Source of the DNA: an uncultured Solirubrobacterales bacterium
GTDB lineage: Bacteria; Actinomycetota; Thermoleophilia; Solirubrobacterales; Solirubrobacteraceae
NCBI GenBank assembly: GCA_963834885.1
Contig: CAWIDF010000008.1
Coordinates: 217,371-281,370 of the forward strand
Length of the DNA: 64,000 nt
Direction of reading: 5' to 3'
Shown here in pieces: positions 498-22,474 of the stretch (the first letter of the stretch is position 1; every line of letters begins with the position of its first letter). A program made the translations under genes and the position numbers. Below the pieces are notes generated by a model, which worked only from the letters and a program-made list of their open reading frames with translations, ran no database searches and had not been told where the DNA came from.

Positions 498-2191
498 GTC
501 GCAGCAACAGCGAGCTGGACCGGCTCCGCAGCGGGCGCACCGAGCTCGAGAACCACTACATCGACGAGCTGGTGTCGGGGAACCTGAGCCGGCGCGACTT
601 CTTGCGGCGCGGAAGCACGATCGGCATGTCGATTCCGCTCCTGGGCGCGATTCTGGCCGCGTGCGGTGGCGGCTCGTCGAGCTCGGCGTCGTCCTCGGGC
701 GGTGCGAGCACGGCCTCTGCTCCCCCGACCAAGGGCGGAACACTGCGCGTCGCGTCCGTCACCCCTGCCGCCGCGGTGAACCCGCTGACGATCGCCGACG
801 CCGGCGGCCTCACGATGATCAACCAGACCGGCGAGTTCCTGATCTTCGACTCGAACCTGAAGCTCGCGCTCCAGCCGATGCTCGCGTTGAGCTGGACGCC
901 GAACACGGACGGCAGCGTGTGGACGTTCAAGCTGCGCCAGGGGGTGACGTTCCACAACGGCGCGGCGATGACCGCCGACGACGTCGTCTGGACGTTCCAA
1001 CAACTCTCAGACCCAAAAAACGCCTCATCCGCGCTGTCGACATTCGCCGGGGTGCTCACGCCGGCGGGGGTCAAGAAGGTCGATGCGTCGACGGTCGAGT
1101 TCCACCTCGAGGCGCCGAACGCGAACTTCCCGTACTTCGTCTCCTCGGACAACTACGGCGCGATCATCGTTCCGAAGGGAACCGACTACGGCAAGTGGCA
1201 GACCACGTTCGTCGGAACTGGTGCGTTCAAGCTCGGGAGCTACACCCAGAACGTGGGTGCGACCTTCGTGCCCAATCCCAATTACTGGGGGACGAAACCG
1301 CTGCTCGCCTCGACCAGCTTCAAGTTCTACTCGAGCCAAGCGCCGATGTTTCTTGCGCTCCAGGGAAACGATGTCGACGTGATCGCGCAGTTCGCCCCGG
1401 CCGGGGCGGCTGCCATCCTCAACAACCCCACGTACAAGATCATCAAGCTGAAGTCGGCAAACCACCGCGAGCTGTCGATGCGCAACGATCAGGCTCCGTT
1501 CACGGACGCGCGCGTGCGCCAGGCGGTGGCGTACACGCTCGATCGCCCGGGGGCGGTGGCGGCGCTCCTCAGCGGCGACGGTTCGGTGGCAAACGACTAT
1601 CCGTTCGGCCCGCGGTACCCCTCGACCGATACGTCGGTTCCCCAGCGCACCCAGGACATCGCCAAGGCCAAGCAGCTCCTGGCCGCAGCCGGTCACCCGA
1701 ACGGCTTCAGCACCACGCTTCTCACCGAGCAGTATCAGGAGATTCCCGAGCTCGCACAGGTGATCGTGGCCGACGCCGCCAAAGCAGGCATCAAGATCAC
1801 CCCCAAGATCGAGAGCCAGTCCGTCTACTACGGAAAGTTCACGTTCGGCAACTCGGACTGGCTGGATGGCACGATGAGCCTGGTCGACTACGGCGACCGC
1901 GGCGCGCCGAACGTGTACCTGTCGTCGCCGCTGACCTCGAGTGGCGTGTGGAATGCGGCAAGGTTCAAGAACCCTCAGTACGACGGGCTCGTCAAGCAGT
2001 ACGTGGCTGCGCTTGACCTCGCGACCCAGAAGACAATCGCCGGGAAGATCGAGAACCTGCTCCTGGCGGAGACGCCGATTGTCTATCCCTACTGGATCGA
2101 CGGGCTGACCGCGTCGACACAGCAGGTGAACGGCCTCAACCCGACGTCGATCGCTCAGCTGTACCTGAACGCGGCGTACAAGTCTGCCTGA
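494..2191 (+). CDS. ABC transporter substrate-binding protein, family 5 (peptide/opine/nickel), Tat-exported lipoprotein
   Basis: SRRDFLRRG twin-arginine motif, LAAC lipobox, WTFKLRQGVTFHNG family 5 signature, GTGAFKL. Confidence 0.93.
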   Translation: MSRSNSELDRLRSGRTELENHYIDELVSGNLSRRDFLRRGSTIGMSIPLLGAILAACGGGSSSSASSSGGASTASAPPTKGGTLRVASVTPAAAVNPLTIADAGGLTMINQTGEFLIFDSNLKLALQPMLALSWTPNTDGSVWTFKLRQGVTFHNGAAMTADDVVWTFQQLSDPKNASSALSTFAGVLTPAGVKKVDASTVEFHLEAPNANFPYFVSSDNYGAIIVPKGTDYGKWQTTFVGTGAFKLGSYTQNVGATFVPNPNYWGTKPLLASTSFKFYSSQAPMFLALQGNDVDVIAQFAPAGAAAILNNPTYKIIKLKSANHRELSMRNDQAPFTDARVRQAVAYTLDRPGAVAALLSGDGSVANDYPFGPRYPSTDTSVPQRTQDIAKAKQLLAAAGHPNGFSTTLLTEQYQEIPELAQVIVADAAKAGIKITPKIESQSVYYGKFTFGNSDWLDGTMSLVDYGDRGAPNVYLSSPLTSSGVWNAARFKNPQYDGLVKQYVAALDLATQKTIAGKIENLLLAETPIVYPYWIDGLTASTQQVNGLNPTSIAQLYLNAAYKSA

Positions 2192-2210
2192 GCCCGGATT
2201 CCGCACGAGC

Positions 2211-3152
2211 ATGGCCAGGTTCATCCTCAAGCGACTCGGTCTCGCGCTGATCACGCTGTGGATCCTGAGCGTGATCGTGTTCGTGCTGGGTCAGGTACTA
2301 CCCAGCGATCCCGGAAGAGCGGTGCTTGGGCCGCTCGCGGATCCTCGCGCCGTGAAGGCCCTCGACCACCAACTGGGTGTCGACAAGCCATTGCTGACCC
2401 AATACTGGAACTGGATCACGAACTTCCCCGGAACCTCGACGCAGTACCAGGGGCCGATCGGGCCGATCCTTGGCCCCGCGCTCGGCCGCTCGATAAAGCT
2501 CGCGATCTTTGCGTTCATCATCGTCGTGCCACTCGGGATCTTCGGGGGGGTGGTGTCGGCCCTGAACTACGGAAAGCCGATCGATCGGACGATCAGCATC
2601 GTGGGGCAGTCGGTGTTGACCATCCCGGAGTTCGTATCGGGGATCATTCTCATCGTTGTATTTGCGGTCGAGCTGAAATGGTTACCCGTATCGGCCACGG
2701 CACCGCCGGGCTCCGGGTTCTTCACCCAGCTCAAATACCTGATCCTGCCCGTGATCCCCTTGGTGTTGGTCCTGTTCGGTTACATCGCGAGGATGGCCAG
2801 GGTGGGGACCGTGGAGGCACTCGAGTCCGACTATGCCCGCACCGCGATCCTCAAGGGCCTGCCGCGGGGCGTTGTGGTCCGGCGCCACATCCTGCGTAAC
2901 TCACTGCTGCCGACGATCACCGTGGTCGCGACTCAGACCGGTTACCTGATCGGCGGGCTGGTCGTGATCGAGACGCTGTTCCGCTACAACGGCATCGGCC
3001 TGCTCACGTACAACGCGGCCAACCAGCACGACATCCCGATGCTCGAGGCGTGCGTGCTGACGATCGGCGTCGTGTACATGGTGGTTACGCTGATTGCGGA
3101 CATTTCGTTCTCGCTGCTCAATCCCCGCATCCGGCTGAAGGCGGCCGAGTGA
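2211..3152 (+). CDS. ABC transporter permease (DppB/OppB-like)
   Basis: FILKRLGLALITL N-terminus; DYARTAILKGL...HILRNSL EAA loop. Confidence 0.93.
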   Translation: MARFILKRLGLALITLWILSVIVFVLGQVLPSDPGRAVLGPLADPRAVKALDHQLGVDKPLLTQYWNWITNFPGTSTQYQGPIGPILGPALGRSIKLAIFAFIIVVPLGIFGGVVSALNYGKPIDRTISIVGQSVLTIPEFVSGIILIVVFAVELKWLPVSATAPPGSGFFTQLKYLILPVIPLVLVLFGYIARMARVGTVEALESDYARTAILKGLPRGVVVRRHILRNSLLPTITVVATQTGYLIGGLVVIETLFRYNGIGLLTYNAANQHDIPMLEACVLTIGVVYMVVTLIADISFSLLNPRIRLKAAE

Positions 3153-4036
3153 GCATCGTCGACGTACCCGTCGAGTCAACCGGCGCGCTCCAGGCCGGTC
3201 GACGGGAGGTCCGCGCCGATCTGCTGCGCGAGCTGTTGCACTCGCCGATGTTCATGATCGGCGCGATCGTGCTGCTGTTCTGGATCGCGTGCGCGATCTT
3301 CGGGCCGACCATCGCGCCGCACGACCCGCTGGCGCAGAACCTCGAGGCGATCAACCGGTCGCCCTCCTCGTCTCACTGGTTCGGCACCGACCAGCTCGGC
3401 CGCGACGTGTTCTCGCGCGTGATCGTGGGTGTGAGGGACGTGATGATCATCGCGCCGCTCGCGACGCTGCTCGGAACGGTGCTGGGAACGATCCTCGGAA
3501 TGCTGATGGGCTATTACCGCGGCCTGGTTGACGACACACTCGGGCGGTTCGTCGAGGCGTTCCTCGCGTTGCCGCTGGTCGTGACGGGGTTGATCGCGCT
3601 GTCGACCCTGGGTCGCTCGAACCTGGTGCTGATCCTCGTGATCGGGGTTCTGTTCACGCCGCTGATCGCGCGCACGGTGCGCGCCGCGGTGCTCCTCGAA
3701 CGCGAGCTCGACTACGTGTCCGCGGCGCGCCTGCGCGGCGAGCGCGGCCCGTACATCATGTTCGTCGAGATCCTGCCCAACGTGTTCGCGCCGATCATGG
3801 TCGAGTTCACGGTGCGCCTGGCCTATGCCATCTTCGCCATCCTCACCCTGACATTCCTGGGGGTCGGCGTCCAGCCGCCGTCGGCCGACTGGGCGCTGGA
3901 CATCTCCGCTAACTTCGGTGTGGTGCCGGCGGGGTATTGGTGGGAGGTCACGTTCGACGCGATCGCGATCATCACGCTGATCGTTGCGGTGACGCTGATC
4001 TCCGACTCGATCCAGGCGACCCTGGAGGACCAGTGA
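3149..4036 (+). CDS. ABC transporter permease (DppC/OppC-like)
   Basis: HWFGTDQLGRDVFSR; DYVSAARLRGE...EILPN; GTG start overlaps upstream TGA. Confidence 0.93.
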   Translation: MSIVDVPVESTGALQAGRREVRADLLRELLHSPMFMIGAIVLLFWIACAIFGPTIAPHDPLAQNLEAINRSPSSSHWFGTDQLGRDVFSRVIVGVRDVMIIAPLATLLGTVLGTILGMLMGYYRGLVDDTLGRFVEAFLALPLVVTGLIALSTLGRSNLVLILVIGVLFTPLIARTVRAAVLLERELDYVSAARLRGERGPYIMFVEILPNVFAPIMVEFTVRLAYAIFAILTLTFLGVGVQPPSADWALDISANFGVVPAGYWWEVTFDAIAIITLIVAVTLISDSIQATLEDQ

Positions 4037-6117
4037 GTACCGCCGCGGACACACCGGCGCAAGGCGCGGTGGACACCCCGCCGCAGGACGCGCTGAGGCT
4101 CGAGGACGTTGACATCACCTATCGCGTGCGAGGACGCGATCTGGTCACGGTGCACGACGTCTCGTTCCGGGTCGGCCGGGGCGAGTCATACGGTCTGGTC
4201 GGGGAGTCGGGCTCGGGCAAGTCGACGATCGCGCTGGCCATCGTCCGCTATCTGGCGCGCAACGGCCGGGTCAGCCGGGGCGGGATCGCGATCGACGGCC
4301 GCGACGTGTTAGCGATGAACCAGGGCGAGCTGCGCCGGCTGCGTCAGAACACCGTCTCAATGGTCTACCAGGAGCCCGGGCGTGCGCTGAACCCGACGCT
4401 CCGCGTCGGGCTGCAGGTGGCCGAGGTGTTCGAGATCGCGGGCGAGGGCAAGGCGCAGGCGCTCGACCGCGCGGAGCAGATGCTGGAGAAGGTGCGTATC
4501 TCGGACCCGGCCGGCGTCATGAACCGTTACCCGCACCAGCTGTCGGGAGGCATGCTCCAGCGAGTCGTGATCGCGATGGCGCTGGCCTCCGACCCCACAC
4601 TGCTGATCCTCGACGAGGCGACGACGGCGCTCGACGCCACCGTCGAGGCCGAGGTGCTCGACCTGGTCACCGCGCTGCGCGCAGAGTTCCACACCTCGCT
4701 GTTGGTGATCAGCCACAACCTGGCCGTGATCTCCAAGATGTGCGACCGCGTCGGCGTGCTGTACGGCGGCGAATTGATGGAAGAGGGCCCGGCTCAGGAC
4801 CTCCTCCACGACCCGCGCAACCCGTACACGGTTGGCCTGCTGCGCTGCATTCCACGCCGGGACACGGTCAAGACGACTCACACGCTCGACACCATCCCGG
4901 GTTTCCCGCCGTCGCCGGGCGAGGTCGAGCACGGCTGCGTGTTTGCCGACCGGTGCGGCCTGGTCCAGCAGCGCTGCCGCGACGAAGACCCTCCCCTCTA
5001 TGACGCCGGGTCGGGCCGACAGTCCCGGTGTCACTTCTGGGAGATCGCGCAGACTCTCCCGCGCGTGGTCAGTCCGGTGCCCGAGCCCGCGGCGGTGCGT
5101 CCCGGCGAGGGCGAGATTCTGGTCAGTGCCGAGGACGTCTCGAAGACGTTCCACATGGAGGGCGAGACGATCCACGGCCTGGTCGACGTGAGTCTCGAGG
5201 TGCGGGCGGGCGAGACGCTCGGGCTGGTCGGCGAATCGGGGAGTGGCAAGACCACGCTGGCGCGCGTCCTGCTCGGACTGACCGAACCCGACAAGGGAGC
5301 GACCCTGGAGATCCAGGGCACACGGCTGCCGGAGCACGCGGGCCGGCGCACGCGCGATCAGCGGAAGTCGCTGCAGATCGTGTTCCAGAATCCGGACTCG
5401 GCCCTGAATCGCCGTCACTCCATCCGGCGACTGCTGTCGCGCTCGCTGTCCAAGCTGGGCGGCTACAGCGGCGATGCGCTGCTGAGCCGGCTGAAGGCGC
5501 TGCTGTCCGAGGTTCGGCTGGCCGATCGCTACCTGCCGATGCGGCCCGGGCAGCTGTCGGGCGGGCTCAAGCAGCGCGTCGCGATCGCCCGGGCGTTCGC
5601 CGGCGATCCCAAGATCGTGGTGTGCGACGAGCCGACCTCGGCGCTCGATGTGTCGGTCCAGGCGGCGATCCTGAACCTCCTGAACGACCTCCAACGCAGA
5701 GAGCAGGTGAGTTACCTGTTCATCAGCCACGACCTCGGCGTGGTGCGCTATCTCTCGGACCGGATCGCGGTTCTGTACCTCGGGCGGATCATGGAGCTCG
5801 GGTCCGCCGAGCAGGTGTTCAACGCGCCGCACCATCCGTACACCGAGGCGCTGCTGTCGGCCGTGCCCACGCTTGAGAACGGCGGCGCCAAGCGCGACCG
5901 GATCAAGCTCGAGGGTGAGATCCCGAGCGCGGCGAACCCGCCCACCGGGTGCGTGTTTCACACTCGCTGTCCGCGGTTCCTGGGCGACATCTGCGTGAAC
6001 ACGGAGCCGCCACTCGCGGAGGAAGAGCCCGGCCATTCCATCCGCTGTCACATCCCCCTCGAGGAGCTCCGGCGCCTCCAGGGCGAGGAGGTCTCGGTTG
6101 CCGGCGCCGGCGACTGA
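4033..6117 (+). CDS. ABC transporter ATP-binding protein, fused DppD/DppF (two NBDs)
   Basis: Two Walker A ([16 protein letters not shown]), signatures LSGGM/LSGGL, two HPY/NPY-Cys C-terminal domains; GTG start overlaps upstream stop. Confidence 0.95.
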
Positions 6118-7294
6118 CGTGGTCTCGGCCGCGCCGGGGACTGCGGCGACCCCGGCGGCGGCGATCGAGATGCGCGCCGCAGTCCTGCGCGAGCCCGGCC
6201 GGCCCGTGGCCGTGGAGACCGTGCTGCTGGCGCCGCCGCGCCGGGGCGAGGTGCTCGTGCGGGTGGTAGCCGCCGGGGTGTGCCACTCCGACGTGCGCCT
6301 GGCCGACGGCGCGCTCGGCGGCGGGCGCTGGCCGATGGTGCTCGGGCACGAGGGCGCCGGCGTGGTCGAAGCGGTCGGCGAGGACGTGATCGACCTCGTT
6401 CCGGGTGACCACGTCGCGTTCTGCTTCGTGCCCTCGTGCGGCGCCTGCGCCGCGTGCCGGTCCGGGCGCCCGACGCTGTGCGAAACGGCCGGTCGTCACG
6501 GCGTCGCCGGGATGCTGATGGACGGCACCTCGCGGCTGCGCACGCCGGACGGCGCGGTGCTCCAGCACGGCCTGATGGCGGCGTGCTTTGCCGAGCACGC
6601 GGTCGTTCCGCTGGCGGGGGCGGTGCGGTTGCCGGCGGAGATCCCGCTGTGGCAGGCCGCGCTGCTCGGCTGCGGGGTGGTGACCGGGATCGGGGCGGTC
6701 AACCTGGCGCAGCTCCGCGTGGGCGCGCACGTGTGCGTGATTGGGTGCGGCGGCGTCGGGCAGCAGGTGATCGCCGGCGCGCGGCTGGCCGGCGCGGGGA
6801 TGATCGTGGCCGTCGACGCCGACGAGACGAAGCTCGAGCTCGCGCGGCGGCGCGGCGCGACGCACGCGGTGCGCGCAGGCGCGGGCGCCCATGTCGTCGA
6901 GGAGGTACGTGCCATCTCTGGTGGCGGAGTCGAGCGCGCATTCGAGGTGGTCGGCGCCGCGACCACGATCCGCCAGGCCTGGGATGTGCTCCGCCCAGGC
7001 GGCACGGCGATCGTCGTCGGCCTGGCGCCGGCCGGGGTCGAGGTGTCGCTGCCCGCGATCGAGTTCCTGAGCGAGAAGACGATCACCGGCTGCTACTACG
7101 GCTCGGCCGACGTCCACGCCGCGCTCGGCCAGCTCGCCCAGCTCGTGGTCGACGGCCGGCTCTCGGTCGCCGATGTGGTCACGGACCTGATCGGGCTCGA
7201 TGACGTCGAGGAGGCGCTGGGCCGCCTGCGCCGCGGCGAGGGCGGGCGCTCGGTGATCGTGATCGACGAGGAGCTCGCCGGGGTGGCGCGGTGA
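6098..7294 (+). CDS. Zn-dependent alcohol dehydrogenase (MDR family, class III-like)
   Basis: GVCHSD, GHEGAG, structural Zn CGACAACRSGRPTLC, GCGGVG; TTG start with GAGGAGGT SD (alternative ATG 6170). Confidence 0.92.
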   Translation: MPAPATDVVSAAPGTAATPAAAIEMRAAVLREPGRPVAVETVLLAPPRRGEVLVRVVAAGVCHSDVRLADGALGGGRWPMVLGHEGAGVVEAVGEDVIDLVPGDHVAFCFVPSCGACAACRSGRPTLCETAGRHGVAGMLMDGTSRLRTPDGAVLQHGLMAACFAEHAVVPLAGAVRLPAEIPLWQAALLGCGVVTGIGAVNLAQLRVGAHVCVIGCGGVGQQVIAGARLAGAGMIVAVDADETKLELARRRGATHAVRAGAGAHVVEEVRAISGGGVERAFEVVGAATTIRQAWDVLRPGGTAIVVGLAPAGVEVSLPAIEFLSEKTITGCYYGSADVHAALGQLAQLVVDGRLSVADVVTDLIGLDDVEEALGRLRRGEGGRSVIVIDEELAGVAR

Positions 7295-7836
7295 ACTGGA
7301 ACGAGCAGTTGGCGCGCCGGCTCGACGGGCAGATCGGCGAGGGGTGGGGCGGGAAGCCGGGTCCCGATGGCTGCCACGTGAACGTGGTCCTGGGTGTCCG
7401 TGGGACGCCCACCGCCGCCTCGATCATCGGCACGTTCACCACGCCGTCCCCGGGCCACACGCCGATCCTCGTGGTCGTCGGCGAGAGCCAGGACAGCTAC
7501 GAGCCGGTATGGCCGCCGACGGTCATGATCAACAAGGCCACGGCGCTCGACGACCGCCATCAGACGATCACCTGGGGCGCGGGGCAGCTGGGGATCGCGC
7601 AGGGCGTGCTCGACGCGGTGGCGGACGGGCTGATTCCGCCGAGCGGCGACCTCGTCGTGCTCGTTTGCGTATGGATCGACCCCGGCGCGTCGGACGAGAC
7701 GGCCGTGCGGGCGGCCGCTCGGGTGGCCACGCGGAATGCGCTCGGCGTGGCGGTTCGCGGCCGGGAGCTCGGGGCTGCGAAGGCGCTGGTGGAACGGCGC
7801 GATTCCGTGACCAGCCCGTTCTACGAGGGGTCGTAA
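7291..7836 (+). CDS. fae: Formaldehyde-activating enzyme (Fae / H4MPT hydro-lyase) family protein
   Basis: By-eye colinear match to M. extorquens Fae: IGEG..CHVNVVLGVRGTP (VGEA..AHIDLIIGPRGSP), PPTVMINKAT (PNTLMFNKVT), GAGQLGIAQGVLDAVADGLIP ([21 protein letters not shown]), VLVCVWI (VLVGVFI), terminal SPF (HPF). Confidence 0.85.
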   Translation: MNWNEQLARRLDGQIGEGWGGKPGPDGCHVNVVLGVRGTPTAASIIGTFTTPSPGHTPILVVVGESQDSYEPVWPPTVMINKATALDDRHQTITWGAGQLGIAQGVLDAVADGLIPPSGDLVVLVCVWIDPGASDETAVRAAARVATRNALGVAVRGRELGAAKALVERRDSVTSPFYEGS

Positions 7837-7838
7837 GC

Positions 7839-8966
7839 TTGCGGATAACGGCGATCCGGCTCCAGCGGTTGACGCTGCCGCTGGACCCTCCGTTCTACGC
7901 CGCCTGGGACCCGGTGCCGCGGCGCACGTTCGACGCCACGATCGTGCGCGTGGAGACCGACGCCGGCCTGACCGGGATCGGCAGCGGGGACACCATGGCC
8001 GGCTTTGATGACTATTTTCGGTTGTTCGTGGGCCGGGACCCCCTCGCCGTTGCCCGGCACGCACGAACGCTGGAGACGGTCTCGTTTCACGGCGGGCGCT
8101 TCTGGCCGTTCGAGGCGGCCCTGTGGGACCTGCTCGGGCAGGCGTGCGGCGTGCCCGTGGCCACCCTGCTCGGGGGCTCCGCATCTGCGATACCGGCCTA
8201 CGCCTCGTGGGGCGAGTTGCGCGACCCCGGCCGGCGCGCCGAGGACGCGCACGCGCTGGTGGAGGAGGGCTTTCGCGCGGTCAAGGTAAGGATCGCGCGC
8301 GGGCGGCTCGACGAGGGAATCGCCGTCGTGGCGGCGATCCGGGCGGCGGTCGGCGACGCCCTCGAGATCATGGTCGACCTCAACCAGTGGTGGCGGATGG
8401 CGGGCGACATCGCGCCCCGGAACGGACCGGTCGACGCGCGGCGCGTGATCGAGCGCCTGCGTTCCCACGGCGTGGTGTGGATCGAGGAGCCACTGCCGGG
8501 CGAGGACCTGCGGGGCATGCGGACGCTGCGCGATCAGACCGGCGTAAGGGTCGGCGGCGGCGAGATGGCGCGTACGTTCGAGGAGCTGCGCCTCGCGCTC
8601 GAGGAGGATGCGCTCGACGTGTTCCAGCCCGACGTCGTGCTCGCCCTCGGGATCTCGGGCGCGCGCACGCTGGCCGAACTCGCGCTGCGGCGCAACCGGT
8701 GGTTCACGCCGCACACCTGGACGAACGGGATCGGGCTGCTGGCCAACCTGCACGTGTGTGCCGGCGTGGGCGGCGGGCCGTTCCTCGAGTTTCCCTACGA
8801 CCCGCCCGGATGGACGCCGGACCGGCGCGACTTCATGCTCGACACGCCGCTGGGGTTGTCGGGTGACGGGGTCGTCCGCGTGCCGGACGCCCCGGGGCTC
8901 GGCGTGGTCCTCGATGAGGAGGCGGTCGAGTTCTACGCCGAGGCGGAGCAGGCGGTGCGGGGCTGA
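7839..8966 (+). CDS. Enolase superfamily, mandelate racemase-subgroup enzyme (acid-sugar dehydratase/racemase-like)
   Basis: TTG start 2 nt after fae stop; EAALWDLLGQ, KVR, metal ligands VDLNQ / WIEEP / GGEM, QPD and PHTW (His-Asp dyad). Confidence 0.88.
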   Translation: MRITAIRLQRLTLPLDPPFYAAWDPVPRRTFDATIVRVETDAGLTGIGSGDTMAGFDDYFRLFVGRDPLAVARHARTLETVSFHGGRFWPFEAALWDLLGQACGVPVATLLGGSASAIPAYASWGELRDPGRRAEDAHALVEEGFRAVKVRIARGRLDEGIAVVAAIRAAVGDALEIMVDLNQWWRMAGDIAPRNGPVDARRVIERLRSHGVVWIEEPLPGEDLRGMRTLRDQTGVRVGGGEMARTFEELRLALEEDALDVFQPDVVLALGISGARTLAELALRRNRWFTPHTWTNGIGLLANLHVCAGVGGGPFLEFPYDPPGWTPDRRDFMLDTPLGLSGDGVVRVPDAPGLGVVLDEEAVEFYAEAEQAVRG

Positions 8967-13906: not shown

Positions 13907-15112
13907 TCAGAGAACGCCGACCCCGTGCGATGCGGCCTCGTCCCACACCGCGTGGAGGGTGGGGGGCTTGCGGAAGACGAGACCTTGGATCTTCGACGGA
14001 CGTTCCGGATCGAGTCTCAGGTTCGGCAGCCGGCGCAGCAGGGTCGCGAGCGCCGTGCGCGCCTCGAGCCGGGCGAGGTGGACGCCCACGCACACGTGCG
14101 GCCCCTGGGCGAAGGCGAGATGGCGGGGGCGGCGCGGCCGGTCCGGGTCGAACCGGTCAGGATCCGGGAAGATCGCGGGGTCGCGGTTGGCGGCGGTGAT
14201 CGAGACGCGAACGAGGTCGCCCTGGTCGATGTCGGCGCCGGCGATGTGCGCGTCGGCCGTGGCGTAGCGGTCGACGACCGCGGCGGCCGGCTCCAGCCGG
14301 AGCGACTCCTCGATCGCGGCGTCGAGCTGGGCCGGGTCGTGTTTGGCTCCGGCGAGGATTTGCGGGTGCTCGAGCAAGAGCAGGAGCGCGTTGGCGATCA
14401 TCCCCTCGGTCGTCTCGATGCCCCCGAACAGCAGCACGCCGGCGTTCGAGACGATCTGGTCGGCGCTGAGGTCCGCGTGCGCCGCGGCGGCGGCGAGCAG
14501 CGAGGCGTCGGGATCGGACTCGATGGCGGCGAGTAGGCGCTCGCGCAGGGAGGCGAAGGCGTCGCGGCCGCTCTGCGGCGTTTCGTGGCCGGCGGTGATC
14601 TCCGTCACCGCGGTCACGATCCCGTCGTACCAGGTCAGCATCGCGTCGACCTCGTTGTGGTCGATCCCGAGGGCTCGAGCCATGATGGCCGCGGCGAGCG
14701 GGCCGGCGAACGAGCGGCGCAGCTCGGCGGTGCCGGCGGGCGCGAAGGCGTCGATCAGGCGGTCGGCCTCGGTCGTTGCCGGCTGGGCGAAGCGTTCGCG
14801 GACCGCCGTCGGCCGGAACGGGCCGACGAACGGCGCGCGGTGGCGCGCGTGGGCGTCGCCGTCGAGGCTCAGCATGCTCGGGCCGACGATCTGGGCGGTG
14901 CTGAAACGCGGGTCGTCCACGGTGAAGGTTGTGGCGTCGCGCATCACGGCGAGCGCCAGATCGCGGCGGGTGACGAGCCACCCGTCCAACGCCGGCAGCC
15001 ACGAGACGGGCTCGCTCTCGCGCAGCCGGGCGTGGACCGGGTGAGGGTCCTGGTCGAGCTGCTCGAGGGTGACGCTCGCACCGAGCGGGAAGGCGTCGCT
15101 TGGGTGCGTCAC
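13907..15112 (-). CDS. Cytochrome P450
   Basis: GGIETT I-helix, EESLR, FAQGPHVCVG heme Cys; GTG start at 15112 overlaps hutI TGA. Confidence 0.93.
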   Translation of the reverse strand: MTHPSDAFPLGASVTLEQLDQDPHPVHARLRESEPVSWLPALDGWLVTRRDLALAVMRDATTFTVDDPRFSTAQIVGPSMLSLDGDAHARHRAPFVGPFRPTAVRERFAQPATTEADRLIDAFAPAGTAELRRSFAGPLAAAIMARALGIDHNEVDAMLTWYDGIVTAVTEITAGHETPQSGRDAFASLRERLLAAIESDPDASLLAAAAAHADLSADQIVSNAGVLLFGGIETTEGMIANALLLLLEHPQILAGAKHDPAQLDAAIEESLRLEPAAAVVDRYATADAHIAGADIDQGDLVRVSITAANRDPAIFPDPDRFDPDRPRRPRHLAFAQGPHVCVGVHLARLEARTALATLLRRLPNLRLDPERPSKIQGLVFRKPPTLHAVWDEAASHGVGVL

Positions 15113-16347
15113 CGACGTGTGATCCGCCACGCCGAGTCCGGGCGCACGTACACGGGATCGCCGGCGATGAACGTGGCGGCGACGGGGTTGTGGCCGAGGC
15201 GATAGGCGATGTGCTCGCTGGGCGAGTCGAGCAGCACGAGGTCGGCCCGCTTGCCCGGCTCGATCGAGCCCAGCTCGCTCGAGAGGTCGAGCACGTAGGC
15301 CGCGTTCAGCGTGACCGCGAGCAGCGCCTCGCGCGTGCTCAGCCCGTATCTGCGGACGGCCAGGCCGACGATCAGCGGCAGCGAGAAGATCGGCGAGGTG
15401 CCCGGGTTGGCGTCGGTGGCGAGCATGACGATCGCGCCGGCGTCGATCAGCGCGCGCGCCGGCGCGACCGCCTCGGCGCCCATGAACTCGGCCCCGGGGA
15501 GCAGCCCGGCGGCGGTGTCGGATGCGCCGAGGGGCGCGATGTCGTCGGGGTGGATGGCGCTCAGGTGGTCGAGCGAGCGGGCGTTGTGTTTGAGGGCGGT
15601 TGGGACCGAGCGCATGGTCGAGAACTGCTCGACGTGGGCGCGGAGGATCAGGTTGTTCGCCGTCGCCAGCTCGCCCATCCGGTCGAGCTGCTCGAGTCCG
15701 AACGCGATCGACTCGACGAAGATGTCGAGCGCGGTGGCGTACTCGGCGGCTTCCGGGATCATCGCCTCGACCTCGTCCATCCACGTGTCCGCGGTGTAGC
15801 CCGCCGGCACCACGTGGGCGAGGAGGGCCGTGCGGGTCGTGGTCTGCTCGACGGACCGGCTCAGCTCGGTGGCGAGCTTGAGCGACCGGAGCTCGCCGGT
15901 GCGCGAGAGGCCGTAGCCGGACTTGCACTCGAACGTGGTCGTGCCGTGCTCGAGCATCTCGCCGGCTAATTGGCGAGCCTGCTGGAGTATCGCGTCGTCG
16001 GGCGTGTCGCTCAGCGCGCGGGCCGAGGAGGCGATGCCCCCGCCGGCCTTGGCGATCTCCTCGTACGGCACGCCCGTGACCTTCATGTCGTACTCCTCGG
16101 CGCGCCAGCCGGCGAAGGGAAGGTGGGTGTGGCAGTCGACCAGGCCGGGGAGGAGCGCGCACCCGGTGGCGTCGATGTGGACGTCGGCGGTTCTCGAGGG
16201 CTCGAGGGCGGCGATCCGCCCGTCGTCGTCCACCGTGATCCCGCCAGGGTCGAGCCGTAGCTCGCCGGCGCGGTGGGTTCGCAGACACGGGAGGTTCGGC
16301 TCCGGTGGCGTGAGGACCTGGGCGGCGTTGTCGAAGGAGGTGGTCAC
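15109..16347 (-). CDS. hutI: Imidazolonepropionase
   Basis: PGLVDCHTH, GVPYEEIAKAGGGI, HGTTTFECKSGYGL, HVEQF, ATDANPGTSP. Confidence 0.93.
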   Translation of the reverse strand: MTTSFDNAAQVLTPPEPNLPCLRTHRAGELRLDPGGITVDDDGRIAALEPSRTADVHIDATGCALLPGLVDCHTHLPFAGWRAEEYDMKVTGVPYEEIAKAGGGIASSARALSDTPDDAILQQARQLAGEMLEHGTTTFECKSGYGLSRTGELRSLKLATELSRSVEQTTTRTALLAHVVPAGYTADTWMDEVEAMIPEAAEYATALDIFVESIAFGLEQLDRMGELATANNLILRAHVEQFSTMRSVPTALKHNARSLDHLSAIHPDDIAPLGASDTAAGLLPGAEFMGAEAVAPARALIDAGAIVMLATDANPGTSPIFSLPLIVGLAVRRYGLSTREALLAVTLNAAYVLDLSSELGSIEPGKRADLVLLDSPSEHIAYRLGHNPVAATFIAGDPVYVRPDSAWRITRR

Positions 16348-16393: not shown

Positions 16394-18031
16394 TCATTGG
16401 TCGCCCAGCATCGGGACGCGCAACCCGTGCTCGTGCGCCGCCGTCACCGCGGTGTCATAGCCGGCGTCCACGTGCCGCAGAACGCCGAGGCCCGGGTCGG
16501 CCTTCAACACCCGCTCGATCCGGCGGGCGGCCAGGTCCGTGCCGTCGGCGACGCACACCTGGCCGGCGTGGATCGACTTGCCCATGCCGACGCCGCCGCC
16601 GTGGTGGATCGAAACCCAGCTTGCCCCGCACGCGGTGTTGACCAAGGCGTTCAACAGCGGCCAATCGGCGATCGCGTCCGAGCCGTCGGCCATCGCTTCG
16701 GTCTCGCGCTGGGGGGAGGCGACCGAGCCGGCGTCGAGGTGGTCGCGTCCGATCACGATCGGGGCCTTGACCTCACCCGAGGCCACCATCTCGTTGAAGC
16801 GCAGCCCCGCCAAATGGCGCTCGCCGTAGCCGAGCCAGCAGATCCGCGCCGGCAGTCCCTGGAACTGGACGCGCTCGGCCGCGAGCTTGATCCAGCGCGC
16901 GATGTGCTCCTGGTCGCCGAACAGATCGAGGATCGCGCGGTCGGTGGCGTGGATGTCGGCCGGATCGCCCGACAGCGCCACCCAGCGGAACGGGCCCTTG
17001 CCCTCGCAGAACAGCGGCCGCACGTACGCCGGGACGAAGCCGGGATAGCTAAAAGCATCCTTGTCCCCATGCTCGTAGGCAAGGCCGCGCAGCGCGTTGC
17101 CGTAGTCGAACGCCTCGGCGCCGGCGGCGGCGAGCGAATGGATCGCCTCCACGTGCGTGACGGCGGATTCGCCGACGCGTCTGAGATATTCGTCAGCATT
17201 GGTCTGGCGCAGGGCGGCGGCTTGTTCGAGGGTCAGGCCGGCCGGGATGTAGCCGTTCAGCGGGTCGTGGGCCGAGGTCTGGTCGGTCACCACGTCGACT
17301 TCGACCCCGCGGCGCACGAGCTCGGGCAGGATCTCGGCCGCGTTGCCGGCGAGGCCGATTGACAGTGCCCGGCGCTCGCGGCGTGCGGCGTCGAGCCGCG
17401 CCAGCGCGTCGTCCAGATCCGCCGCGCGCTCGTCCAGGTACCGGCCGCGGATGCGACGCTCGATCCGCTGGAGGTCGACCTCGACGCACAGCGCGGTCCC
17501 GCCGTTCATGGTGATCGCGAGGGGCTGGGCGCCGCCCATCCCGCCCAGGCCGGCGGTCACCACGAGACGACTGGCCAAAGACCCGCCGAAGCGCTTACGC
17601 GCGATCGCCGCGAACGTCTCGTACGTCCCCTGCAGGATCCCCTGGCTCCCGATGTAGATCCAGGAGCCGGCGGTCATCTGGCCATACATGATCAGACCGG
17701 CGGCGTCGAGCTTGCGGAACTCGTCCCAGTTCGCCCAGTCGGGCACCAGGTTCGAGTTGGCCAGCAGTACCCGAGGCGCCTGCTCGAACGTCTGGAACAC
17801 CGCGACGGGCTTGCCGGACTGCACGAGCAGCGTCTCGTCGTCCTCGAGGCGCTGGAGCTCGCGGACGATCGCGTGATAGCTCGGCCAGTTGCGGGCCGCC
17901 TTGCCGATCCCGCCGTAGACGACGAGCTCGGAGGGGTTCTCAGCGACGTCGGGGTGCAGGTTGTTCTCGAGCATGCGCAGCGCCGCCTCCTGGTGCCAGC
18001 CCTTGCATCGCAGCCCGGAGACGCCGGTCAT
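16394..18031 (-). CDS. hutU: Urocanate hydratase
   Basis: [75 protein letters not shown]; ATG overlaps regulator stop. Confidence 0.97.
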
Positions 18032-18693
18032 GCCGCGGCCACTCCGACGTACCCGAGGTCGTGCGACAGCTCGCCGGCGTGGCGCGCCACCGCCCGCCCG
18101 CAGACCTCGACCTTTCGGGCCGTCGTGCGGTACACCGGGGCCAGCACGCTGAGCGCCGCTGCGATCTCGCCGACGGCGCCGTACACGGGGGCGGCGATCG
18201 AGATCACGTCGGGTTCGACCGCCCCGGCCCGGGCCGCGTAGCCGCCGGAACCGACCGCCCCGCGCAGCGCCCCGCCGAGTGCCGTCCCGCGCTGGGGGAT
18301 CGTCCGTCCCGCCCAGCCCACCGTCTGGACCAGCCCTGGGCCGGCGACCTGGCGGAGGTAAACGACCCGCCGGTCGTCCGCCGCCACCGCCAGATTGGCG
18401 GTCTCGCCGGTCTCGGCGGCCAGGGCGCTCAGGTGCCGGCCGGCCAGGTCGTACAGCGGATCCTGGCGCAGGGTCGCCGCGGCGAGCGCTCGGAGGCGGC
18501 CCCCGGCGTGGTAGTGCCCGTGCTCGTCGCGGCGCACGAGCTCCTGGGTGGCCAGCGTGGCCAGCAGCCGCGAGGCAGTGCTCGGCGAGAGATCCGCGGC
18601 GCGCGCCAACCGGCTGAGGTTGCCGCCCTCCTCGGCCACCGCGGTCAGCAGCCTCAGCGCTCGCTCCACGGTGCGGGTCCCGGCTTCCGCCAT
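18028..18693 (-). CDS. IclR-family regulator of the hut cluster (HutR-like)
   Basis: [12 protein letters not shown]-terminal HTH, TGETANL, IAAPV; leaderless-type TAGAGT 8 nt before ATG 18693. Confidence 0.88.
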
Positions 18694-18730
18694 CGGGTCG
18701 CACTCTACCGTAGAATGAAATGCCTTGTCA

Positions 18731-19624
18731 CTAGACGGCAATCGGTGCCTCCCGGCTGGTGCGGGCGGCCCCCACCGACGCGACCACGACCAGCCCCATG
18801 CCGAACAGCTCTCGTGGGGCCAGGCCCTGCCCGAGCACGATCAAGCCGGCCAACGCGGCCATCGCGGGCTCGATGCTCATCAACACCCCGAACACCGACG
18901 TCTTGATTCGCCTGAGCGCCTCGACCTCGAACGAGTACGGGATCGCCGACGACAGCATGCCCACGACACCACCGAGCAGCAGCGAGCGTGGCTCGAACAG
19001 ATGGGCCCCGCCCTGGGCGAGTCCGATCGGGGTCATGAGGACCACGGCCACGCACATCGCGAGCGCGAGGCCCGTGCCGCCTTCGAAGGCGCGGCCCACC
19101 CGCGCGTTGACCAGGATGTAGCAGCCCCACAAGCTGCCGGCGAGCAGCGCCAGCGCGACGCCGACCGGGTCGAGGTGGTGGACCCCGCCGCGCGTCAGGG
19201 CGAGGATGCCGGCCGCGGCCAGCGCCACCCAGACGAGGTCGCGCGGGCGCCGCGAGCCGGCCAGCGCCACCGCGAGCGGGCCGACGAACTCGAGCGTCAC
19301 GGCGATGCCCAGCGGGATCCGGTGCAGGGCCGAGTAGAAGCTGAAGTTCATGCTGGCCAGGATCAGCCCGAACAGGGCGGCGATCCCGAGCTGATAGCGC
19401 GTGTAGCCGGACATGCGCGGGCGCCAGAGCGCGAGCAGGATGATCGTCCCGAACATCAGGCGCAGCCACACCGCCCCGCCCGGCCCGATCTGGGCGAACA
19501 GCGTGGCGGCGACCGCCGAGCCGAATTGCACGGAGGCGATCGCGCTGACCACGAGCACGCCCGACGGCGTGCGCGCGAGCAGTCCCGGGCGGCGAGGGAT
19601 CGCCGCTGTGTCGCTGGTGGCCAC
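18731..19624 (-). CDS. EamA/DMT family transporter (RhtA threonine/homoserine exporter-like)
   Basis: SVQFGSAVA, RIPLGIAVTLEFVGPL, LSSAIPYSFEVEALRR, LMSIEPA. Confidence 0.9.
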   Translation of the reverse strand: MATSDTAAIPRRPGLLARTPSGVLVVSAIASVQFGSAVAATLFAQIGPGGAVWLRLMFGTIILLALWRPRMSGYTRYQLGIAALFGLILASMNFSFYSALHRIPLGIAVTLEFVGPLAVALAGSRRPRDLVWVALAAAGILALTRGGVHHLDPVGVALALLAGSLWGCYILVNARVGRAFEGGTGLALAMCVAVVLMTPIGLAQGGAHLFEPRSLLLGGVVGMLSSAIPYSFEVEALRRIKTSVFGVLMSIEPAMAALAGLIVLGQGLAPRELFGMGLVVVASVGAARTSREAPIAV

Positions 19625-19632
19625 CGGGTCCG

Positions 19633-21111
19633 ATGCTAACCGGGCCGGCGATCGTCCTGGACGGCGAGACGCTCACGCCGGCGAGCGTCGACGCGGCGGC
19701 GCGCCGGGGATCGCCGGTGGAGCTGGCGCCCGCGGCACGGGCGCGCAACGAAACGGCCCGGAAGACGATCGCTGCGCTGCTCGAGCGCGGGGAGGCCTTG
19801 TATGGCGCGACCACCGGCGTCGGCGCGCTGCGCGACCGGACGATCACCGACGAGGCCCGCGAGCGCTTCCAGTGGAACCTGCTGCGCAGCCACGCGGTCA
19901 GCGCCGGGCGCCCGCTCGCACCCGAGCTGGTCCGCGCCGGCATGGTCGTGCGCGCCAACCAGCTCGGGGCGGGCGGGGCGGGAGTGGCGGCCGGGCTGCT
20001 CGACGGACTGGTGGCCGCGCTCAACCACGGGGTCACACCGATCACGCGCGAGCTCGGCTCGCTCGGCACCGGCGATCTGCCCGCGCTGTCGGAGATCGCG
20101 TTGGCGCTGCTCGGCGAGGGCAAGGTGCTCCGGGGCGGCGAGCTCATCGACGCGCCGGCGCCGGCGCAACCGACGAGGCTCGGCCTGCGGGACGCGCTCG
20201 GGTTCATCAGCTCGAATGCGATGACCGCGGGGCACGCCGCGCTGCTCACGATCGATGCCCGGGCGCTCCACGACCGATGGCTCGCGGTCGCGGGCCTGTC
20301 GTTCGAGGCGCTCGACGCCGACCCGGTGGTCCTCGACGCGCGCGTCCAGGCCGGCCGCGGCGCGCGCGGCCAGGCGGTTGTGGCCGAGCGGATGCGCGAG
20401 CTGTTGGCCGGCGCCCCGTTCGACCCGCGTACGCCCGACCGCCTCGTCCAGGACCCGTACGCCTTCCGGGTGCTGCCGCAGGTCGACGGCGTCGCCAACG
20501 ACGCCCTGCGGGTGCTCGACGACGTCGTGACGCGCGAGCTGAACGCGCGCGCGGAGAACGCGCTGATCCATGACGGGAGGGCGTTCGCGACCGGCAACTT
20601 CCACGCCGCCGAGCTCGGCGCCGCCCTCGACGGACTGCGTGCGGCATTCGCGCATTCGGCGTCGCTGATCGCCGGCCGGGTGAGCGCGATCCTCGATCCG
20701 CGGATGAGCGGGCTGCCGCCGTTCCTGGCCGACGACCCCGGCCCGGACTCCGGCCACATGATGCTCGAGTACACCGCTCACGCCGCCGCCGCCGAGGCGC
20801 GCTCGGTCGCGGCGCCGATGGCGACTCAGAGCGTGTGGGCCTCGCTCGGGGTGGAGTCGCACGCGAGCCTGGCGGCGACGGCCGCTTCCCGGACGACGCA
20901 GCTCCTCGACGCGATGGGAGTGCTCGTCGCAACTGAGCTGGTCGTGTCCATGCGGGCGTTCCGGCTGCGCGGGCGAGGGCCGTCGGGGGCGGGCGTCCGG
21001 GCGCTGTTCGAGGCCGCCGCCCGGGTGCTGCCCGCGGACCCCGGGGACCGGGCCTTCGGCCAGGACGTCGAGGCCGCGCGCGAGCTGCTCGCCTCGCCAT
21101 CCGCGCGGTAG
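19633..21111 (+). CDS. Aromatic amino acid lyase family protein (HAL-like) lacking the Ala-Ser-Gly MIO triad
   Basis: YGATTGVG, LLRSHA, QDPYAFR, GNFHA present; MIO region reads GSLGTGDL instead of GS(V/I)GASGDL. Confidence 0.88.
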   Translation: MLTGPAIVLDGETLTPASVDAAARRGSPVELAPAARARNETARKTIAALLERGEALYGATTGVGALRDRTITDEARERFQWNLLRSHAVSAGRPLAPELVRAGMVVRANQLGAGGAGVAAGLLDGLVAALNHGVTPITRELGSLGTGDLPALSEIALALLGEGKVLRGGELIDAPAPAQPTRLGLRDALGFISSNAMTAGHAALLTIDARALHDRWLAVAGLSFEALDADPVVLDARVQAGRGARGQAVVAERMRELLAGAPFDPRTPDRLVQDPYAFRVLPQVDGVANDALRVLDDVVTRELNARAENALIHDGRAFATGNFHAAELGAALDGLRAAFAHSASLIAGRVSAILDPRMSGLPPFLADDPGPDSGHMMLEYTAHAAAAEARSVAAPMATQSVWASLGVESHASLAATAASRTTQLLDAMGVLVATELVVSMRAFRLRGRGPSGAGVRALFEAAARVLPADPGDRAFGQDVEAARELLASPSAR

Positions 21112-21148: not shown

Positions 21149-22474
21149 ATGGGCGTGCAGGCAGAGGAGCAGCTGTGGGGCGGTGAGACCACCAAAGCGG
21201 TGGCCAACTTCCCGGTCTCGGGCGAACGAGTCCCGGTTCCCGTCGTCCGGTGGCTCGGGCGGATCAAGAGCGCGGCGGCGCACGTGAACGCCGAGCTCGG
21301 GCTGCTCGATCAGGACAAGGCGATGCGGATCGCGGCCGCCGGCGACCGGATCGCCGAGGGCGAGTTCGACGACCAGTTCCCGATCGACGTGTTCCAGACG
21401 GGCTCGGGGACCTCGTCGAACATGAACGCCAACGAGGTCATCGCGACGCTCGCGGGCGAGGACGTGCACCGCAACGATGACGTCAACATGGGCCAGTCCT
21501 CCAACGACGTGTTCCCGTCCGCGGTCCACCTCGCCGCGCTCGACACCGCCACCAACGAGCTGTTGCCGGCGCTCGAGCAGCTGGAGGCGTCCCTCCAGCG
21601 CAAGGCCGACGAGTTCACCGACATGGTCAAGTCCGGGCGCACGCACCTGATGGACGCGGTGCCGGTCACGCTTGGGCAGGAGTTCTCGGGCTACGCGGCT
21701 CAGGTCCGCCTCGGCGCGCGGCGAATCTCTAACGCGCTCCCGCAGGTGGCGCAGATCCCGCTCGGCGGCACCGCGACCGGGACCGGTCTCAACACCCACA
21801 AGGAGTTCGCGGAGCGCATCCGCGCGCGGCTCGTCGAGGTGAGCGGTCTGAAGATCCGCGCGCCCGAGGACCCGTTCGAGGCGCAGGGCAACCGGGACGC
21901 GCTGGTCGAGCTGTCGGGCGCGTTGAAGGTCCTCGCGGTCTCGTTGACCAAGATCGCCAACGACCTGGCCTGGATGGGGTCGGGTCCGCGGACGGCGATC
22001 GGCGAGATCCTGCTGCCCGAGCTCCAGAAGGGATCCTCGATCATGCCGGGCAAGGTCAACCCGGTGATCCCCGAGGTCGTGCTCCAGGTCGCCGCGCAGG
22101 TCATCGGCAACGACACCACGATCACGGTGGCGGGCTCGCAGGGCAACTTCGAGCTGAACGTCCGCGTCCCGGTGATCGCGCGCAACCTGCTCGACTCGAT
22201 CAAGTTGCTGGCGAACTCGTGCCGGATCTTCGCCGAGAAGTGCGTCGACGGCATCCAGGCCAACGAGGAGGGACTCCGCCGCTCGGCCGCGATGACGCTG
22301 TCGGCGGCCACGGCGCTGAACCCGCACATCGGGTACGACAAGGGCGCCGAGATCGTCAAGGTCGCCGCCGATTCCGGCCGTCCGCTGCGTGACGTGGCGC
22401 TCGAGCTGGGTGTCGACGAGGAGACCTACGACAAGGCGATGGACCTGCGCACGATGGCGCAGGGCAACCTGTAG
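21149..22474 (+). CDS. fumC: Class II fumarate hydratase
   Basis: FQTGSGTSSNMNANE, SSNDVFPS, KSGRTHLMDA, GSSIMPGKVNPV. Confidence 0.92.
   Translation: MGVQAEEQLWGGETTKAVANFPVSGERVPVPVVRWLGRIKSAAAHVNAELGLLDQDKAMRIAAAGDRIAEGEFDDQFPIDVFQTGSGTSSNMNANEVIATLAGEDVHRNDDVNMGQSSNDVFPSAVHLAALDTATNELLPALEQLEASLQRKADEFTDMVKSGRTHLMDAVPVTLGQEFSGYAAQVRLGARRISNALPQVAQIPLGGTATGTGLNTHKEFAERIRARLVEVSGLKIRAPEDPFEAQGNRDALVELSGALKVLAVSLTKIANDLAWMGSGPRTAIGEILLPELQKGSSIMPGKVNPVIPEVVLQVAAQVIGNDTTITVAGSQGNFELNVRVPVIARNLLDSIKLLANSCRIFAEKCVDGIQANEEGLRRSAAMTLSAATALNPHIGYDKGAEIVKVAADSGRPLRDVALELGVDEETYDKAMDLRTMAQGNL

Follow-up and report, generated by a model that had tools for sequence, protein, structure and literature searches.

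The stretch of DNA analysed here (the window) comprises 64,000 nucleotides of an uncultured Solirubrobacterales bacterium, positions 217,371 to 281,370 of the forward strand of contig CAWIDF010000008.1 (assembly GCA_963834885.1). Within it, beside genes of histidine utilisation (hut), lies a gene for a homologue of histidine ammonia-lyase (HAL) whose product lacks the serine from which the 4-methylideneimidazol-5-one (MIO) cofactor of HAL is formed. What could such a protein be doing next to a urocanase? We argue below that it is probably a lyase acting on hercynine, the trimethylated betaine of histidine. The gene and the motifs on which the argument turns are these:

19633..21111, plus strand: MIO-less PF00221 lyase of 492 aa, member of a clade marked by G-T-[GA]-D, SSN, AEN and LEY motifs; proposed hercynine (histidine betaine) trimethylammonia-lyase
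19801..19818, plus strand: YGATTG (residues 57-62); Tyr57 corresponds to the catalytic base of HAL, Tyr53, and is invariant in the clade
20056..20079, plus strand: shortened cofactor loop GSLG-TGDL (residues 142-149), against GSVG-ASG-DL in HAL; without the Ser and one residue shorter, its length being that of ergothionase (SIG-EGDI)
20206..20220, plus strand: ISSNA (residues 192-196) replacing HAL LLNGT, with Asn195 changed to Ser193 and Gly196 to Ser194
20749..20772, plus strand: SGHMMLEY (residues 373-380); Met376 corresponds to HAL Met382, the clade-specific Glu379 stands for HAL Gln385, and Tyr380 occupies the position of ergothionase Lys384

The open reading frame (ORF; 19633-21111, plus strand) is intact, with 492 codons, a third-position GC content (GC3) of 0.94 and a codon-position GC typical of a real gene in a 70% GC genome. 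The PF00221 profile matches it at 390.5 bits over profile positions 1-464 of 466, that is, over its full length, and the equivalog cut-offs for HutH are missed (TIGR01225, 342.4 against 539.15 bits; NF006871, 355.4 against 524). A preliminary description made from the letters alone had read a loop GSLGTGDL at 20056-20079, one residue short and devoid of the MIO serine, and an ISSNA in place of LINGT, with the Tyr of YGATTG, the SH, QDPY..R and GNFH motifs and the Met of SGHMM retained. All of this is borne out by the exact translation and, for the loop, by a HMMER alignment to Pseudomonas putida HAL (1gkm), in which GSLG-TGDL faces GSVGASGDL across a one-residue gap and Ser193 falls on HAL Asn195. 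The change at the LINGT position is common to ergothionase (VSCNA) and to the Shewanella protein Swoo_3913 (LSNNA). Further motifs are RSHAV (85-89), QDPYAFR (273-279), GNFH (321-324) and GVESHAS (406-412). What is left of the active site? The carboxylate ligands Gln273, Arg279 and Asn309 (HAL Gln277, Arg283 and Asn313) and the imidazole ligands His87 (HAL His83) and Glu408 (HAL Glu414) are kept, as is Tyr276 of QDPYxxR. No leader peptide was found on the lyase, residue 7 aligning to residue 3 of cytoplasmic HALs. In the AlphaFold2 (AF2) model, with a predicted local distance difference test (pLDDT) score of 92.7, the protein has the HAL fold. The best match of this model in the PDB by Foldseek is ergothionase 6s7j (template modelling (TM) score 0.93, root-mean-square deviation (rmsd) 2.0 A, 27% identity), with HAL marginally behind (TM 0.92, 32% identity).

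Is this still an enzyme? More than 100 homologues at 74-92% identity, from Solirubrobacterales or Solirubrobacteraceae by source name, keep all the lyase motifs. Of the 150 top matches of an exhaustive HMMER search over 1.8 billion cluster representatives, 137 (those of 430-720 aa) were aligned with the query and reference sequences. Among these, 55 cluster representatives with 38-67% identity carry a common signature: a loop G-T-[G/A]-D, one residue shorter, with the Thr in 53/55; Ser-Ser at HAL Asn195-Gly196, with Ser in the Asn195 column in 52/55; Glu (Glu308 in the query) for HAL Asp312 in 55/55; and Glu (Glu379) for HAL Gln385 in 54/55, followed by Tyr (Tyr380) to give Glu-Tyr in 51/55. 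In a subset of 32 members (36-66% identity) that left out those with Ala or Ser at the Gly147 position, Tyr57, Thr146, Gly147, Asp148, Ser194, Arg279, Glu308, Asn309, Glu379, Tyr380 and Glu408 are invariant. Such conservation argues for a working enzyme maintained by selection. Loss of the cofactor that defines the canonical enzymes might suggest a catalytically dead or non-enzymatic paralogue, for instance a binding or regulatory protein, but down to 38% identity the catalytic Tyr, Arg, Gln, Asn, His and Glu vary little or not at all, the ORF is intact with strong coding bias, and relatives with the same loss are proven enzymes, so that such a reading is scarcely credible. The degenerate gene that the preliminary description had allowed for can likewise be set aside, given that both the close homologues and the 55 representatives keep loop and motifs. 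The gene is nevertheless patchy within its order, with a match at E <=1e-100 in only 3/121 sampled genomes, which fits an accessory catabolic trait. A tblastn search of a plasmid collection with the lyase returned only canonical hutH genes (30-39% identity).

Which members of the family work without MIO? Two Shewanella preprints by Bertsova and colleagues, from which the statements made here on the ergothionase mechanism are drawn, describe MIO-less PF00221 proteins as trimethylammonia-lyases, in which trimethylamine leaves well enough without the cofactor. In ergothionase, Lys384 binds the thiolate and is essential for activity, and a neutral residue at this position goes with sulphur-free betaines. 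Swoo_3913 of Shewanella woodyi, described in 2025 (bioRxiv 10.1101/2025.08.13.670108), has Asn there and is a histidine-betaine trimethylammonia-lyase converting hercynine into urocanate and trimethylamine. SO_3299 has Gln, uses N-pi-methyl-hercynine and rejects both hercynine and ergothioneine. Every characterised MIO-deficient lyase, according to these authors, strictly needs a complete trimethylammonium group. In a FastTree phylogeny of 141 sequences the 55 G-T-[GA]-D representatives are monophyletic (support 1.0), and their sister (0.874) is a clade of 17 tips that holds Treponema denticola (Td) ergothionase, Swoo_3913 and Lys-bearing ergothionase-like proteins. An IQ-TREE run on a reduced set of 51 sequences, with Shimodaira-Hasegawa-like approximate likelihood-ratio test (SH-aLRT) support, gave 100 for the whole short-loop clade and 99.1 for the ergothionase/Swoo clade. 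The short-loop, MIO-less proteins thus share ancestry to the exclusion of MIO-bearing HALs. Set among HALs and ergothionases, as the preliminary description had envisaged, the lyase falls in one monophyletic MIO-less clade with the characterised trimethylammonia-lyases. Judged by alignment and trees, its own group is mostly actinobacterial, well supported and marked by Thr146, Ser193-Ser194, Glu308 and Glu379-Tyr380.

Could the shortened loop make a cofactor of another kind? A genuine ammonia-lyase for histidine, or for another amino acid, would need either an ethylidene-imidazolone derived from Gly145-Thr146-Gly147 or a cofactor-free mechanism. Thr146 is present in 53/55 representatives and flanked by glycines in the query, a Gly-Thr-Gly could on paper cyclise like Ala-Ser-Gly, and all the histidine-binding residues are kept. 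MIO and the chromophore of green fluorescent protein (GFP), however, form by cyclisations that need a Gly after the position of the cyclising residue. The residue following the loop Thr is Ala in 11/55 clade representatives and Ser in 1/55, and a Thr-derived cofactor is unlikely because 12/55 thus do without the required Gly; these Thr-Ala-Asp and Thr-Ser-Asp variants speak against the unusual cofactor that the preliminary description had kept as an alternative. The S143T mutant of HAL is reportedly inactive. In addition, HAL Asn195 is lost and the loop has the length of that in ergothionase, which is MIO-free in its crystal structures. Finally, the genome (6.2 Mb in 17 contigs) does contain a canonical Ala-Ser-Gly hutH, on contig C16, with GSLGASGDL and LINGT, so the MIO-less lyase is not the histidase of this organism. 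With such a gene in the genome, and within the same cluster in Actinomadura-type loci of relatives, a second histidase would be redundant. Taken together, ammonia-lyase activity on a plain amino acid is very improbable.

The genes that surround the lyase bear on its product:

18731..19624, minus strand: EamA/DMT (drug/metabolite transporter)-family protein of 297 aa, RhtA-like (220 bits); first gene of an EamA-IclR-hutU-hutI operon and candidate substrate importer
18028..18741, minus strand: IclR-family regulator, overlapping EamA by 11 nt and hutU by 4 nt; probably the local hut regulator
16394..18031, minus strand: hutU, canonical urocanate hydratase (TIGR01228, 922 bits against a cut-off of 375); 46-nt gap to hutI
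15109..16347, minus strand: hutI, imidazolonepropionase (TIGR01224, 322 bits against a cut-off of 298); the next gene encodes a cytochrome P450
13907..15100, minus strand: cytochrome P450 (PF00067; start codon approximate), downstream of hutI
21149..22474, plus strand: aspartase / class II fumarase-like gene, 38 bp downstream of the lyase

The lyase gene is divergent from EamA, and only a few bases separate the predicted start codons. The canonical hutU and hutI that had been noted next door are confirmed by scores above the NCBIfam equivalog cut-offs (922 against 375 and 322 against 298). Both are sole copies in the genome, and a hutF-like gene lies elsewhere in it. By score hutU is below the NCBIfam cut-offs for thiourocanate hydratase (680 against 930) and S-methyl-thiourocanate hydratase (714 against 880). 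Hence no linkage to thiourocanate-processing enzymes is seen at this locus, the adjacent hutU being a urocanase by score.

This matters for the rival reading that the protein is an ergothionase splitting ergothioneine into thiourocanate and trimethylamine. Its top structural match is 6s7j, the shortened loop and the Ser-x-Asn-Ala motif are common to both, and the organism probably makes ergothioneine: an egtB-like and egtD-like pair in the genome, unlinked to the locus, suggests biosynthesis of ergothioneine and of hercynine. Against this, ergothioneine is an unlikely substrate because Tyr380 replaces the thiolate-binding, essential Lys384, and the replacement is near-invariant in the clade (Glu-Tyr in 51/55); the neighbouring hutU is not a thiourocanate hydratase by score; and ergothionase-like paralogues that do bear the Lys form a separate clade and coexist with the lyase type in the same clusters of relatives. 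An ergothionase is therefore as improbable as an ammonia-lyase.

How is the gene embedded elsewhere? A scan of one genome per species yielded 80 loci, all from Actinomycetota, of which 26/80 have hutU within 10 kb of the lyase. Grouped by identity to the query, they read:

Loci at >=64% identity (n=16): hutU <=10 kb in 10; EamA in 11 and the aspartase-like gene in 14
Loci at 53-63% identity (n=22): hutU <=10 kb in 10; major facilitator superfamily (MFS) transporter in 18, second MIO-less paralogue in 12, OpuA-type ATP-binding cassette (ABC) genes in 2
Loci at <=46% identity (n=42): hutU <=10 kb in 6; OpuA-type betaine ABC transporter in 12, canonical hutH in 5

The second MIO-less paralogue of the middle group has the loop GSVG-ASDL and a Lys ('LSKT') at the position of ergothionase Lys384, and is in this respect ergothionase-like. 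No model in NCBIfam claims the lyase or the ergothionase-like paralogue, which match only HutH, phenylalanine ammonia-lyase (PAL) and aminomutase models below cut-off. In loci L028-L044 (Solirubrobacteraceae, 53-63% identity) the G-T-G-D lyase is divergent from this Lys-bearing paralogue. Many loci of the group hold an ornithine cyclodeaminase (OCD)/mu-crystallin gene, hutI and hutF, with the MFS transporter and hutU nearby too. The arrangement in L028-L044 is a candidate for a combined cluster of ergothioneine and hercynine catabolism. At 41-46% identity the hosts are Actinomadura, Streptosporangiaceae, Saccharothrix, Streptomyces, Lentzea and others, and in 12/42 of the distant loci the lyase stands head-to-head with an OpuA-type ABC transporter (ATPase, permease and a PF04069 OpuAC protein). 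The closest solved relatives of the OpuAC protein are binders of quaternary ammonium compounds: ProX, choline/betaine binders and the ergothioneine binder EgtUC. Five of these 12 loci also hold IclR, canonical hutH and hutU; one such hutH has the loop GSLGCSGDL and scores 624 bits on PF00221. A betaine importer clustered with a MIO-less lyase, a histidase and a urocanase is what would be expected if histidine and a histidine betaine entered one pathway in parallel. IclR genes occur in the Actinomadura-type clusters and in L045.

On these grounds we take the lyase to be a cytoplasmic hercynine trimethylammonia-lyase yielding urocanate and trimethylamine, with a probability that we put at roughly 0.6. 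The preference for hercynine over histidine or ergothioneine, already voiced in the preliminary description, gains support from the MIO-less clade, Tyr380, the hutU scores, the context of betaine ABC transporters and hut genes, and the separate hutH. The mechanism can be sketched by homology with ergothionase and Swoo_3913. The carboxylate of hercynine would be held by Arg279, Gln273 and Asn309 and the imidazole between His87 and Glu408, while Tyr57, on a mobile loop, would take the beta-proton. The permanently charged trimethylammonium group could then depart as trimethylamine without covalent activation by MIO. The shortened G-T-G-D loop, together with Ser193 and Ser194, may fill the space of MIO and Asn195 and leave room for the three methyl groups, and the cationic group may be stabilised by two residues peculiar to the clade, Glu308 and Glu379. 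Urocanate would pass to HutU and HutI, and then to the product of the unlinked hutF-like gene. Import here probably falls to EamA, where other lineages have OpuA-type ABC or MFS transporters, and local regulation to IclR. The hercynine itself might come from the environment (soil) or be endogenous, via egtB-egtD.

Several points weigh against hercynine. Since the canonical HutH, too, depends on the single hutU and hutI, the adjacency of lyase and hut genes is only moderate evidence. Within the window there is no betaine-type transporter, and in about 30/42 of the distant loci, all Lentzea loci included, no hut or betaine-transporter gene occurs within 10 kb of the lyase. The position of Lys384 is Tyr in the clade, against Asn in the proven histidine-betaine lyase Swoo_3913, and two extra conserved glutamates of the clade are missing from the proven enzymes, so a related betaine may be what the enzyme prefers. 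The sister-group node is only moderately supported (FastTree 0.874), in a tree whose Td ergothionase sequence, reconstructed from HMMER output, has seven unassigned residues and whose Swoo_3913 sequence was taken from a preprint supplement read by optical character recognition (OCR). Hercynine-lyase function is predicted for the clade by comparison.

The most serious rival builds on these residue differences: a trimethylammonia-lyase for another histidine-derived betaine (N-pi- or N-tau-methyl-hercynine, S-methyl-ergothioneine or an oxidised ergothioneine derivative), with hercynine a side substrate at best. The specificity of SO_3299 shows that small changes in the active site retune the substrate, the invariant Thr146, Glu308, Glu379 and Tyr380 are not found in Swoo_3913 or ergothionase, and the pairing of the lyase with a Lys-bearing paralogue in the 53-63% group suggests a division of labour among related substrates. 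Yet by its scores the hutU linked to the lyase is a canonical urocanase and falls short of the thresholds for thiourocanate and S-methyl-thiourocanate hydratases, both imidazole ligands, His87 and Glu408, are kept as in HAL, and hercynine is, according to the literature, the most abundant natural candidate. We regard another betaine as unlikely, though to be taken seriously. Would fewer methyl groups suffice? N-alpha-methyl- or N-alpha,N-alpha-dimethyl-histidine could serve if a clade glutamate kept the leaving amine protonated; Glu379 and Glu308 are conserved extra acids near active-site motifs, and a PF02574 methyltransferase in the L045 operon could demethylate a betaine. But the Shewanella authors state that the characterised MIO-deficient lyases strictly require trimethylammonium, and the recurrent partners are transporters of the betaine-type OpuA kind, which makes a partly methylated substrate improbable. 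An N-alpha-methylated substrate, as the preliminary description had it, thus stands for the trimethyl form, while the mono- and dimethyl forms are less likely since the published lyases need the full trimethylammonium group. A bolder and unlikely reading is that Thr146 with Glu308 and Glu379 marks a mechanistically distinct MIO-free lyase, one that eliminates a protonated, partly methylated amine such as that of N-alpha,N-alpha-dimethyl-histidine, the proton being held by a glutamate, or one specific for an unrecognised actinobacterial histidine betaine. If true, this would mean cofactor-free C-N elimination beyond quaternary ammonium, or a new pool of natural products in soil.

The remaining neighbours can be described in their own right. 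The P450 is a recurrent neighbour of the lyase: orthologues (61-73% identity) follow hutI in L012-L017 and stand directly beside the lyase in L025:11470-12621 and L045:8827-9981 (61-63% identity), where hutU is absent. The L045 operon consists of an amino acid-polyamine-organocation (APC) permease, an aldehyde dehydrogenase, the P450, the lyase, IclR and the PF02574 (betaine-homocysteine-type) methyltransferase. The aspartase/fumarase-like gene was considered as a partner and rejected: it is kept in 14/16 of the close loci and 0/64 of the more distant ones, inserted genes separate it from the lyase in L011, and the genome holds no second homologue of this kind. It is probably a syntenic, housekeeping neighbour outside the system. 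Between 3937 and 12318 the plus strand of the window encodes a fused peptide-type ABC ATPase, a protein like class III/NDMA-type (N,N'-dimethyl-4-nitrosoaniline-dependent) alcohol dehydrogenases, formaldehyde-activating enzyme Fae (7291-7836), an MR_MLE protein of the enolase superfamily (7839-8966), an aldehyde dehydrogenase, a 3-hydroxyisobutyrate-dehydrogenase-like protein and a D-2-hydroxyacid dehydrogenase. The lyase gene follows directly on this same block in L022 and L026, where the hut segment is missing. The proximity of formaldehyde-handling functions to a putative source of trimethylamine may be meaningful or mere synteny.

Six PF00221 paralogues in one 6.2-Mb genome are unusual. 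One of them (C8:215208-216818, minus strand) lies about 550 bp upstream of window position 1 and adjoins peptide-type ABC transporter genes (window 494-6117); its loop is GVSGAAGEI (Ala-Ala-Gly, without the MIO Ser), with LINGA and no His at the position of HAL His83, and in the tree it stands with the C12 paralogue close to the MIO-less clade. Another (C11:195798-197918, minus strand) carries a signal or transmembrane segment at its N-terminus and contains long insertions and a loop, GSPGEGDL, that resembles the loop of ergothionase. Among PDB structures it matches ergothionase 6s7j best, and in the tree it lies within the ergothionase/Swoo_3913 clade; it is probably an exported trimethylammonia-lyase. 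Of a further pair, C11:161259-163097 (plus strand) and C12:19084-20577 (plus strand), one has an intact Ala-Ser-Gly and motifs like those of PAL, tyrosine ammonia-lyase (TAL) or aminomutases (GSCGASGDL, FYGGH), and the other the loop QSNGGSGEI with LINGS. The genome also has one MttB-family methyltransferase (621 bits) and one gene like flavin-containing monooxygenases (FMO; 293 bits); either could handle trimethylamine, but both are unlinked to the locus and are given no weight. Their positions, with those of the egt pair, are:

C3:488879-491204, plus strand: egtB-like and egtD-like pair
C3:556147-557580, plus strand: MttB-family methyltransferase
C16:213549-214808, minus strand: FMO-like gene

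What would a hercynine lyase in this place mean? The hercynine trimethylammonia-lyase reaction is already known from Swoo_3913, and the advance would be incremental because that reaction was published in 2025 and paralogues of a similar type are common. In the literature searched, this clade appears undescribed: actinobacterial and cytoplasmic, with its Thr/Glu/Glu/Tyr signature, and found with hut genes and betaine importers rather than with respiratory flavocytochromes. A search of that literature for 'S-methyl thiourocanate' and 'thiourocanate hydratase' found nothing. If the assignment holds, soil Actinomycetota would feed hercynine, both a precursor and an oxidation product of ergothioneine, into histidine utilisation by a cytoplasmic assimilatory route that releases trimethylamine. 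The gene is carried by Solirubrobacterales, Actinomadura, Lentzea, Saccharothrix and Streptomyces, and a widespread misannotation as "histidine ammonia-lyase" would be corrected. Soil would gain an added source of trimethylamine and a sink for betaines of the ergothioneine family. For the study of the MIO-free HAL fold, it would offer a second, independently diverged active site (Thr, Glu, Glu, Tyr against Leu/Glu, Asp, Gln, Asn/Lys).

Four known systems invite comparison. By genetic setting the lyase, here and in the Actinomadura-type clusters, can be likened to hutH1 of Pseudomonas fluorescens SBW25. That gene is an additional hutH homologue within a hut locus, beside the hutXWV ABC transporter, and is reported to be dispensable for growth on histidine. 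P. putida HAL (1B8F/1GKM; TIGR01225), 32% identical to the lyase, agrees with it in the fold, the catalytic Tyr, the imidazole-binding His and Glu, the Gln, Tyr and Arg of QDPYxxR, GNFH and Met382, but the MIO triad and Asn195 are absent from the query, in whose genome a true hutH coexists. The ergothionase of Treponema denticola (6S7J/6S7Q) is like it in loop length (SIG-EGDI), in the change of Asn195 to Ser (VSCNA) and in the kept Tyr base and carboxylate ligands; it differs in Lys384, against Tyr380 in the query, and in a loop Glu, against Thr, and at 27% identity it belongs to a different clade. Swoo_3913 in turn sits in the sister clade with the ergothionases, outside the G-T-[GA]-D clade, and is a periplasmic, Mg2+-dependent enzyme that works with a urocanate-reductase flavocytochrome in anaerobic respiration, whereas the window lyase has no leader and is linked to the assimilatory hutU and hutI. 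No export signal and no linkage to a flavocytochrome urocanate reductase were found at the window lyase, whose neighbours are EamA, IclR, hutU and hutI. Where the window protein has Thr146, Glu308, Glu379 and Tyr380, Swoo_3913 has Leu, Asp, a Gln-type residue and Asn. Both are nonetheless PF00221 proteins without Ala-Ser-Gly, Swoo_3913 having a loop one residue shorter (SVG-LSDI) and Ser-Asn-Asn-Ala for Asn-Gly-Thr; both lack the Lys of ergothionase Lys384, and the proven reaction of Swoo_3913 is the one proposed here.

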